DNA of 64,000 nucleotides from a plasmid. The position numbers were made by a program. The stretch lies in the NCBI RefSeq assembly GCF_988243305.1, contig NZ_OZ547137.1; one strand, given 5' to 3'. Below, piece by piece: positions 24,901 to 27,900 of the stretch; position 1 is the stretch's first letter; each line of letters starts with the position of its first letter.

Positions 24901-27900
24901 GACATTGTTCATGAGTTATTTTTCACGTAGCACACGCACTGTTTATGGATACAGGTATTCTGACCTGAACGCCCGGATCCTTCCACGACAATAAATCGCA
25001 GCACGCGGATCCTTTTGTTTGCTTATCACGCATTATTGCGGGTAAAACCAAATACGTAAAGGCGCGTTTTGCAGCAGGGATCCCGTCTTAAGCCAGTCGT
25101 GGCGCGGGCTGATGGCTGGTTTGCCGTCTTTGGGAGAAATGGGGTAATGCCAGGACAAACAGGATCGGACCAAAAGGAAAAGGAGCAGGGAAGAAGGAGG
25201 ATGCGCTACGTGAATTCTGACCTGGTACACCCCTGTAACCCTGCCAGTTTTCACGTAGCGCAATGTGGTTGCTACCTAACACCAGTTGAGATGAGAGCCG
25301 GCATCCTGATGCTGGATTAATATACGGATAATAATAATTTCAGTATCAGTCTGCAGAAAATAAAGCATATGTCGTTCAACGGATAGTGCGAATATGTATT
25401 CCCCCAGTTCAGGGCGGGGAGTACCGATATTATGATCACTCATAACCTGAAAAATATCGGATATCTGATTAATATATTTGTCTGCTTGATCCTCACCAAA
25501 ATGGCGGCACCCGTAATACCAGATATCCTCCAGATCCTGACTGGCTTTCGGTGTGAGTTTAACGGTTTTCACCGGCCCCCCTCGTGCCAGCTTTAACTTT
25601 CTTCAGGAACGCATCTTTTTCCCACACCACAGGTTCACCGCTGCTCAGGCCTTCTGCCAGTAAATCCCGCAGGGCCTGGAGACGTGACTCTGCCTGTTTC
25701 TCGCGCAGGAGACGAAGTGACTCGCGGATTACTTCACTCTGTGTACGGTAATCACCTGATTCTATGAGAGATTCTATGTACTCCCAGAGTTCATCTCCGA
25801 GAGCAACTGTCATTGTTCTGGCCATATCAAGCCTCGTGATTGTAAGTTTAAATTTTACATGCAGTTTATTCGATACTCAAAGGTGCTTCCAGTACAGAAC
25901 ATTTGGGAGAATTGGGGTAATGCCTGGAACAGACAGATACGGAGAAAAACCCTGCAGATAACCTTATACGACAACTGAAGGTGTCTGATGCCATATTCTT
26001 AGCTACTTCTCTGTCTTCAGGCGGCTTAGTCACAACATAAGACCGATGCATAATAAGCATATTTTTTCATGTTATGGTCTTGTTCATGCATGAACTATTA
26101 TCTATTCAGTCACTTTTAAAGTTTTATATCATACTGCATATGATATATATCATCTCCTATATTCAGACTAAAAATATTATGACGATGGTCAAATGAATTT
26201 AGTGAAAACGCTACCTAAAACAATATGCTTATGATATAACTTATCAAGAATATGCGACAATCTTCTTGAAAGGTTACGGAGAAGAGTCAGATAATGAAGT
26301 GTTATAACTCATTCAGCTTTTTTATGTTCTCTTTATAGTAAAACTAGGAGATTAAGATGAATCAGAAGTGGAAGACGTTAATTATTTCATTATTAACACC
26401 ATCAAGTATTATATCAGGGATTGCGTTGATAGTTCTCTGGGGATATTTCAGTCGCCTGGGCCGACTAGATATTTTCTTTGATGTAATGAATATTAAAAGC
26501 ATCTTGGTATTGGTTTGTTGTGCAACTATACTATCATTGGCTATGATAGTATTTATCTTTTTTATAACCTCTTTTTTTATACCCGTAGTTATTCCTCAGG
26601 ATATAAATAATCTTCCTGCTTACAATAAGATTCAGGGTAATTTTTTATCTGTGATGATGTTATCTGGCATGTTCCCCATGGCCTTTATATATGTGTTATA
26701 CTGTGCATTTGATTTTGATCAGAATGTTAAAGATAACTCTGGCTGGTTATCTATTGCAAGTATGGGTGTACTGATAGCTGTTATTTTAGCCATAGTAAAT
26801 AAGAGGTATCTTGAATATGACTTATCGTTTAAAAACAATAGAATGAAACTGTTGAGACGTGTTCAGATCTATCTTGTCATTCCGTTGTCTATTGCTTTAC
26901 TGGTGCATCTTCAGTTAATTCCTCTGGAGATAGTTTTTAGGAATATTGCAACTTCAGATAAGAGTGTTAATTTCAAAGTGATAGCCGAACTGGCTTTCAT
27001 GTCATATTTTATCTTTCTTCTGACAATGCTTCCTGGAGTCATTTATCTGAAAATGAATCCACAGCATAAATTTTCAAAAAGAATTAGCTATTCATTTATC
27101 GCATCCTTGATGTTATTATTAATAATATCGACTCAAATAACCGTGTTACCAGTGATTTTTACCCATTCCGTTATTAAGCTATCAGGTATAAGTGACTTCA
27201 AAATACATAGCTACATTATTAAATCAAGTGAATATCCTGAAGAGTTTTTTTCCAATGCAGCATGGGATAAAAAAAATATAAAACCGGGGGATTATTACTC
27301 TGTGCAGGCTGTTTCTATGTTTACGACAAACCAGTTTATTCTCCTTTGTCCTAAGGATATTATAAAGTTTTATCGGGAAAGCTGGAAGTTCGAGTTGCTT
27401 AATGTAGACTTCGATATAAATACCAGGAAGAAACTCCAGGAAGAAGCTGCATATTGCGTACCAATTTCTGCAATATCTGTAAAACGATGGGATATGCCTC
27501 TTCAGGGCTCGAAACCCTCAAGTTAGAAGGCAACTAGGGCGACTGTATTCTGTGACGAAATGAATGGCTGGCTCACTATAATAATGAGCGAACCCATCAG
27601 GGAAAAATGTGCAATGGGCGGACGCCAATGGAAACGTTACTCGATGGAAAACGCATCTGGGCCGAGAAAAATTTAAGCCAGATGTAATCTGACAGATACC
27701 TGTATAAATAACCGATAACTGTCAGATCAGGTCTGAGCTAATACATTTCAATAAAGGTACTTGCTCGCGCTCTGTCATTTTCTGAAACTCTTCATGCTGC
27801 ATTTCGATTTTCCTTCTAAGATCATAACTCGCATACCTGTTCTTTTTATGTATATCTATATCTATTTTTGTGACGAGTTCAAACCACAATGTTCGCGCTC

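Follow-up and report, generated by a model that had tools for sequence, protein, structure and literature searches.

An AT-rich gene beside a RepFIB replicon

We analysed a 64,000-nt stretch of plasmid DNA (RefSeq assembly GCF_988243305.1, contig NZ_OZ547137.1; hereafter, the window), focusing on a 389-aa open reading frame (ORF) at positions 26357–27526 on the plus strand. The ORF was confirmed and is the gene for a seven-helix inner-membrane protein, as supported by the reading frame itself, purifying selection, a family of 111 related clusters and an AlphaFold model; we refer to it as the 7-TM (seven transmembrane helices) gene. More broadly, the setting is an Enterobacteriaceae IncF plasmid and its RepFIB replicon, with RepB at 22916–23893 and, beside the replicon, a tyrosine recombinase at 24172–24912. 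Metabolic cargo (IclR, KdgT, RidA and a DapA-like gene) adjoins the 7-TM gene both in the window and in plasmid pEC958. Near-identical plasmid copies are listed in RefSeq as hypothetical proteins, WP_032284272.1 (p104) and WP_001072355.1 (pEC958).

The gene had been singled out in the original prediction as much richer in AT than its neighbours, which our measurements bear out. Its GC content is about 33% (0.339 for the gene alone) against about 50% in the flanks, and the GC fraction is 0.31–0.34 over positions 26000–27400, comprising the gene and a 300-bp leader, as compared with approximately 0.45–0.58 on either side. A strong Shine-Dalgarno sequence, AGGAG, can be read 6 nt before the ATG (26346–26350, plus strand). 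The best match to a sigma-70-like promoter, TTGAAA-18-GATAAT, occurs about 60 nt before the ATG (26266–26295, plus strand) and is a candidate at most, such matches being no more numerous in this region than in shuffled sequence. The AT-rich leader also contains an imperfect 20-nt direct repeat, at 26135–26154 and 26226–26245 (TGCATATGATATATATCATC / TGCTTATGATATAACTTATC), with its copies 91 nt apart, which from its sequence may be an operator. The module to which the gene belongs ends, right after the stop codon, in the remnant of an IS481-family transposase (27559–27687, plus strand), a call taken from the annotation of identical DNA in pEC9-AU-EG1 by the Prokaryotic Genome Annotation Pipeline (PGAP); the same DNA has a match in an E. 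coli island that is unrelated.

A widespread family under purifying selection

The ratio of nonsynonymous to synonymous substitutions (dN/dS) was 0.28 in the comparison with a second E. coli allele (93% nucleotide identity) and 0.09–0.10 with Enterobacter alleles (around 70% identity), indicating that the ORF is a real gene and not a chance reading frame. In the PLSDB database, the gene is carried by 1,286 of 72,556 plasmids (about 2%), mainly E. coli IncF plasmids including pEC958 of sequence type 131 (ST131). Approximately 380 of the carriers contain an allele at least 99% identical to that of the window and some 800 have the 93% allele, while the Enterobacter allele accounts for about 90.

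An exhaustive HMMER search of 1.84 billion cluster representatives recovered 111 related clusters (50% identity), nearly all of whose full-length members are 375–420 aa long and align end to end. Therefore the gene is not an orphan, as had been supposed, but one representative of a 7-TM protein family, all visible members of which are labelled hypothetical or uncharacterised. In every homologue examined, the base composition was set apart from that of its own locus. A profile search of a collection of 5.8 billion proteins returned no named relatives and no informative domain fusions, and a scan of genome contigs for the family yielded six loci only, too few for statistics.

Intact and shortened alleles coexist in E. 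coli. The exact protein sequence of the window was found in 350 contigs, an allele of 282 aa that lacks the first 107 residues in at least 990, and an allele of 304 aa that lacks the C-terminal domain in 181. Additionally, an IS1 insertion sequence interrupts the gene in one plasmid, NZ_CP139842.1. This is a common gene under clear purifying selection, yet without a name, a domain, a structure or a function.

Topology and conserved surfaces

Hydropathy analysis and the AlphaFold model (predicted local distance difference test, 93.5; predicted template modelling score, 0.88) gave the same picture, seven transmembrane helices and then, at the C-terminus, a soluble alpha/beta domain of about 120 aa, matching the initial description of a multi-pass membrane protein with a hydrophilic C-terminal domain. 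The transmembrane region, starting from a cytoplasmic N-terminus, comprises residues 1–270 (26357–27166, plus strand), and in the model helices 1–7 occupy approximately residues 8–28, 47–68, 93–115, 128–150, 166–189, 206–228 and 246–270. Residues 271–389 (27167–27523, plus strand) make up the C-terminal domain, with a small beta-barrel core and two helices.

We analysed conservation and charge in 61 diverse aligned members of the family. The mean number of lysine plus arginine residues was 10.9 for the N-terminus together with loops 2-3, 4-5 and 6-7, versus 3.3 for loops 1-2, 3-4 and 5-6, and the positive-inside rule was satisfied in all 61 sequences; this unanimity places the N-terminus in the cytoplasm and the C-terminal domain in the periplasm. 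The loops on the cytoplasmic side, which are short, showed the lowest mean conservation (0.21 for loop 4-5 and 0.28 for loop 6-7), as opposed to 0.50, the highest value, for periplasmic loop 1-2 and 0.39 for the C-terminal domain. The first periplasmic loop contains the motif W-x-Y-(F/L)-x-x-(L/I)-G-R-L-D-x-F (residues 28–40; 26438–26476, plus strand), the best-conserved stretch of the alignment apart from the C-terminal domain, with W28, Y30, R36, D38 and F40 each kept in 80–85% of the sequences.

Only four residues are invariant in the family, P226, W303, C331 and C367. The last two are the sole cysteines of the C-terminal domain and are presumed, from their conservation, to form a periplasmic disulfide. 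That no charged or polar residue is invariant speaks against an enzyme or an ion-coupled transporter.

No match to a known family or fold

As the original prediction had stated, the protein belongs to no recognised family. The query did not match Pfam-A, even at E ≤ 10, and neither the query nor the 61-member alignment matched any profile hidden Markov model in Pfam, NCBIfam, PADLOC or PHROGs. When the 61 aligned members were scanned singly, they gave scattered lone hits, the best of them to DUF6077 (one member, E = 6e-4). Likewise, PADLOC-DB 2.0, whose coverage stops short of the systems published after 2023, contained no matching family at E ≤ 1, and sequence-profile searches of the PDB, whether for the full-length protein or for its C-terminal domain, returned nothing meaningful.

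Comparison with solved structures, including those of transporters, showed no significant likeness in sequence or fold, and Foldseek searches of AFDB50 retrieved uncharacterised proteins only, from Enterobacterales and Pseudomonas. Homology to a housekeeping transporter, which had been named at the outset as evidence that would tell against an accessory role in conflict, was thus found neither by sequence nor by fold. We also rejected two specific identities, that of a GT-C glycosyltransferase, Wzy or WaaL protein (surface-modifying enzymes carried by phages), as neither the fold nor any invariant catalytic residue, acidic or basic, in the periplasmic loops was present, and that of an Abi/CAAX-type intramembrane protease (CPBP, PF02517), for which there was no Pfam hit. 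With a confident model that lacks a solved relative, and with its conserved surfaces facing the periplasm, the gene is directly testable.

Neighbouring toxin–antitoxin modules are incidental

The immediate flanks are as originally described. Upstream of the 7-TM gene lie ParE (25276–25572) and ParD (25559–25825; TIGR02606, E = 2e-22), and downstream, by their RefSeq names, a RelE/ParE-family toxin (28121–28396) and a ribbon-helix-helix (RHH) protein (28396–28680). Between the gene and this second toxin–antitoxin (TA) pair there is a 97-aa ORF (27722–28015, minus strand), convergent with the 7-TM gene and preceded by a good Shine-Dalgarno sequence. The position of the gene between two TA modules had been read as meaningful, but our comparisons show it to be incidental.

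By aligning the spacer between the recombinase and the 7-TM gene with that of a plasmid carrying the 93% allele, we found that ParDE is a later insertion, a 773-bp cassette bounded by 27-nt direct repeats at 25129–25155 and 25902–25928 (TTTGGGAGAAWTGGGGTAATGCCWGGA). Plasmids with the 93% allele contain one copy of this repeat and no ParDE cassette, a sequence arrangement that suggests that the cassette entered site-specifically next to the recombinase of RepFIB. The ParE and ParD genes are both frameshifted in some plasmids, such as pEC9-AU-EG1.

On the downstream side, the IS481 remnant separates the 7-TM gene from the 97-aa ORF and the RelE/RHH module, both of which are widespread without it. 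The plasmids with the 97-aa ORF number 2,573 and those with the RHH gene 1,803, against 1,298 for the 7-TM gene, and both mostly occur where the 7-TM gene is absent. The ORF usually lies beside the RelE/RHH pair, also in other plasmids that lack the 7-TM gene. The ORF is often called partial or a pseudogene by PGAP, and in ST131-type plasmids an IS1 lies between it and RelE. None of ParDE, RelE/RHH and the 97-aa ORF was found at the Enterobacter, Lelliottia or other more distant loci of the family. We therefore discarded both TA modules as partners, there being no conserved co-occurrence, and also the 97-aa ORF, whose association with the gene had been proposed as a check and which does not track with it outside this plasmid lineage; a 97-aa ORF downstream of the Xenorhabdus homologue is unrelated to that of the window.

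Mobile elements and defence genes across the family

To place the family in its genomic settings we inspected 19 independent contexts, counting defence neighbours by hand. No neighbour was conserved across them, indicating that the gene is autonomous. In agreement with the initial suggestion of a horizontally acquired accessory gene, 16 of the 19 contexts are plasmids, integrative and conjugative or integrative and mobilizable elements (ICEs and IMEs), prophages or islands. Recognised defence systems occur within about 6 kb in nine or ten of the contexts. In Serratia, for instance, the family member has a type I restriction–modification (RM) system directly upstream, as it has nearby in a Xenorhabdus ICE, and the Photorhabdus member is flanked on one side by SIR2-HerA and on the other by a type I-A retron (reverse transcriptase, PtuA and PtuB). 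In an E. kobei mcr-10 plasmid, the neighbourhood contains DUF4411-XRE, a TIR protein and a CBASS (cyclic oligonucleotide-based antiphage signalling system) pair; other cases are a TerY-C/PP2C/kinase triad in Enterobacter plasmids including pECL_A, HEC-08 in Lelliottia, and an OLD-family nuclease with a patatin in one IME.

The window itself contains a SIR2-HerA system 8–13 kb and an AbiJ-like ORF 5–6 kb upstream of the ATG. The former consists of HerA (13816–15624, minus strand) and a SIR2 gene whose C-terminal (15621–16112, minus strand) and N-terminal (17467–17991, minus strand) halves are split by an IS3-family element (transposase at 16573–17439, plus strand). The same PADLOC subtypes of SIR2-HerA are those directly upstream of the Photorhabdus member, whose HerA is 38% identical to that of the window. 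The latter is a 246-aa ORF (20289–21029, plus strand) with a weak match to AbiJ (PADLOC, E = 3e-9), and the ORFs near it, between 18129 and 22130, matched no family.

Two members are associated with phage tail genes. One is carried by a lambdoid prophage, at the tail-fibre end, and the other, P0106, which is 26% identical to the window protein, lies in a P2-like prophage between the tail-fibre-assembly and tail-sheath genes. Defence cargo is a known feature of the Z/fun hotspot of P2 (bioRxiv 10.1101/2024.10.15.618418). Together, the family is one of unnamed, widespread and structurally novel accessory membrane proteins of mobile elements, with circumstantial links to defence.

Relation to EC958_A0140

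In a TraDIS study (sequencing of transposon-directed insertion sites) of pEC958, the hypothetical gene EC958_A0140 was nearly free of insertions and was called required for stable maintenance; it was common to 17 other plasmids, all of them IncF except pECL_A, with pEC_L8 and pEC_L46 among them, and its function could not be guessed by bioinformatics (Phan et al. 2015, PMC4398462). Plasmid pEC958 carries the 7-TM gene at 118165–119334 (99.5% identical) and pECL_A a 68% homologue, and the UniProt entry "IPF_99" is a 99% match to the window protein, whereas both the 97-aa ORF and the RHH gene are much too widely distributed for the published description. For these reasons EC958_A0140 is probably the 7-TM gene; against this, calibration of the locus tags places the 7-TM gene at approximately A0141–A0143, off by one to three loci, so that the 97-aa ORF, the RelE gene and the RHH gene are alternative candidates.

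If the two genes are the same, the published signal becomes a matter of plasmid stability, toxicity or transposon bias, a question dating from 2015. A low density of Tn5 insertions can also stem from AT-rich, H-NS-bound DNA, which is a plausible alternative here, where the AT-rich DNA is probably bound by H-NS. The IS1-interrupted copy and the very common truncated alleles indicate that the gene is dispensable for plasmid maintenance.

A possible inner-membrane barrier facing the periplasm

We tentatively favour the view, which in our judgement falls clearly short of an even chance, that the gene encodes an autonomous, non-enzymatic barrier or exclusion protein acting at the periplasmic face of the inner membrane. 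This stand-alone inner-membrane protein, travelling as cargo of plasmids, ICEs and prophages, exposes its loop-1 motif and a small-barrel domain with its presumed disulfide to the periplasm, and would there bind or occlude, without catalysis, something that an invader needs to cross the inner membrane. The most likely target would be the DNA-entry step of phages, in a defence akin to superinfection exclusion, with conjugative DNA or an imported toxin as less likely targets. Because the periplasmic parts are also the conserved ones, with the periplasmic domain evolving most slowly, the target would be sought among conserved components of the host or envelope more readily than among phage proteins, which evolve fast. 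For the family as a whole, it is possible, though somewhat short of an even chance, that it constitutes a single-gene class of periplasm-facing inner-membrane proteins, hitherto unrecognised and with a new fold, that stops phages, other DNA or toxins at the inner membrane and spreads through the IncF plasmids, ICEs and prophage hotspots of Enterobacterales. Its carriers include IncF plasmids of ST131 lineages and Enterobacter mcr-10 plasmids.

Several known proteins offer partial parallels. Fun(Z) of P2, a lysogenic-conversion protein which blocks T5, is likewise encoded by an AT-rich single gene, and P0106 occupies the same slot as fun(Z), both being transcribed against the tail genes. Nevertheless, Fun(Z) has 528 aa and the copy in the window is carried by a plasmid and not a prophage; homology between Fun(Z) and the family was rejected (hhalign probability, 0.2%). 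The superinfection-exclusion proteins T4 Imm, P22 SieA and HK97 gp15 of phages are single inner-membrane proteins of mobile elements that work on their own, presumably barring the entry of DNA from the periplasmic side. We liken them to the family by mode of action and not by family membership, since they have one to four helices and fewer than about 170 aa, as compared with the seven helices and folded periplasmic domain of about 120 aa of the window protein, and the family has neither a PHROG hit nor a tblastn hit in sequenced phages. If the protein does block phage entry, it would represent a new and much larger architecture among the few known inner-membrane exclusion proteins, with a bearing on phage therapy against clinical E. 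coli carrying IncF plasmids.

A number of observations weigh against this interpretation. Searches by tblastn of the 50,697 sequenced phage genomes of INPHARED, with two family members as queries, found no homologue, and four scans of IMG/VR yielded a single contig with a family member. In E. coli, the shortened alleles are at least as common as the intact one, so many carriers manage without an intact protein. The defence association comes from a hand count of 19 loci with no background control, and the cargo regions of mobile elements are enriched in defence genes anyway. Moreover, three of the contexts are ordinary chromosomal neighbourhoods or are without recognisable mobile-element genes, namely an Erwinia locus with ClcB/LemA-like and RlmG genes, one from a Pseudomonas-like genome with ComM and BCCT transporters, and an E. 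coli locus flanked by insertion sequences only. Literature searches, including those by accession number, found no experiment tying any family member to phage resistance. Finally, the known exclusion proteins are far smaller and unrelated, the likeness to them being one of location and topology only.

Among the alternatives, that of an accessory membrane protein outside any conflict, such as a transporter, a signal receiver or an envelope-homeostasis factor, survives best, although we consider it unlikely. Its company of defence genes would then reflect no more than shared variable cargo regions, in keeping with the uncontrolled count, with the Erwinia and Pseudomonas-like neighbourhoods and with the metabolic cargo next to the gene in the window and in pEC958. 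However, no transporter or sensor family was matched by sequence or fold in Pfam, NCBIfam or the PDB, the protein has no cytoplasmic domain for signalling, its cytoplasmic loops being the least conserved parts, there is no invariant charged residue in the membrane, and the gene never occurs in an operon with metabolic genes.

The original prediction proposed an abortive-infection or exclusion effector. A role in conflict stands, on the circumstantial grounds of the defence neighbours and the P2 Z/fun slot, whereas abortive infection is not favoured, given conserved surfaces that face the periplasm. As an abortive-infection effector, the protein would lie dormant as a pore or membrane disruptor and, once infection is sensed, kill or arrest its cell. 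Many defence effectors are indeed multi-pass membrane proteins, and the frequent natural truncations would suit a costly gene. In addition, at one metagenomic locus (L025) a 24%-identical member starts 17 bp after, and on the same strand as, the gene for an unannotated 1,431-aa P-loop NTPase (L025 1187–5482) resembling STAND proteins (signal-transduction ATPases with numerous domains). The NTPase has an N-terminal P-loop and a weak match to nSTAND5, and near its C-terminus reads as having a PD-(D/E)xK-like motif; as judged by these motifs, it may be an uncharacterised STAND-type defence protein. Its homologues, 25–45% identical, occur on Rhizobium, Burkholderia and Vibrio plasmids, but those on Rhizobium and Vibrio plasmids have no adjoining family member, so we rejected the pairing as a feature of the family, and the clade of the query always stands alone. 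With no cytoplasmic sensing domain and no match to a PADLOC model either, an abortive-infection role appears improbable.

We give equally little credence to an immunity factor against a periplasmic or inner-membrane toxin, be it a bacteriocin or an effector of type VI secretion or contact-dependent inhibition, maintained as an orphan on mobile elements. The conserved periplasm-facing surface recalls BmiA and PmiA, poorly conserved integral-membrane immunity proteins to colicin M (ColM)-type toxins, whose periplasm-exposed parts are thought to be protective (PMC5277000). One member of our family adjoins a colicin M-like gene, and the Lelliottia member is followed by a fragment with a Tlde1 domain. 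Nonetheless, that colicin M-like gene already has its own YebF-like, Cmi-type immunity gene beside it, a cognate toxin occupied the usual adjacent position in none of the 19 contexts, and the family does not form the tandem arrays typical of orphan immunity genes. PmiA (about 137 aa, four helices) is unrelated, and both it and BmiA (three helices) are always linked to a ColM-type toxin, unlike the family; a PmiA-type colicin M immunity was thus rejected on size and topology.

Entry exclusion in conjugation offers another comparison. TraS of F and Eex of SXT are, like the family, hydrophobic inner-membrane proteins of AT-rich genes. The eex and traS genes lie directly after traG in SXT and F, and the family gene of the Xenorhabdus ICE directly follows a traG-like gene, in the matching position. 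This was the only such case, the window gene being situated between the RepFIB and recombinase genes and the RelE module; the window copy and most others are outside a transfer operon, the prophage and chromosomal copies do not fit the role, and the family proteins are two to three times larger than TraS and Eex and show no sequence similarity to them. A factor for plasmid maintenance or stability, or for conjugative entry exclusion, is therefore the least probable reading, and a very doubtful one, despite the TraDIS result for EC958_A0140 (probably the same gene), the location beside the RepFIB replicon and its recombinase and the Xenorhabdus case, as prophages and chromosomal islets also carry family members, and others adjoin RM systems, unconnected with plasmid replication, and this type of plasmid carries its own tra-encoded exclusion genes.

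Other features of the family loci

In the Enterobacter and Lelliottia plasmids (loci L015, L016, L028, L006 and L044), a gene for a XerC-like tyrosine recombinase is always found 232–250 bp upstream of the 7-TM homologue, in divergent orientation, and in the E. kobei plasmid mcr-10.2 is located on the far side of this recombinase. A different recombinase, 26% identical to the XerC-like one over 94 aa, holds the equivalent position in E. coli.

The P2-like prophage that contains P0106 also carries, beyond the baseplate genes, an AAA_15/AAA_21 ATPase gene (L019 11894–13167), which may be further defence cargo. In pEC958 (L043), beyond the IS1 that follows the 7-TM gene, the stretch at 121374–135464 contains genes for a UvrD-like helicase and an AAA ATPase, together with two VapBC pairs around a 1,264-aa hypothetical protein, a HEPN nuclease and a DUF3800 protein, and looks like a defence and TA island.

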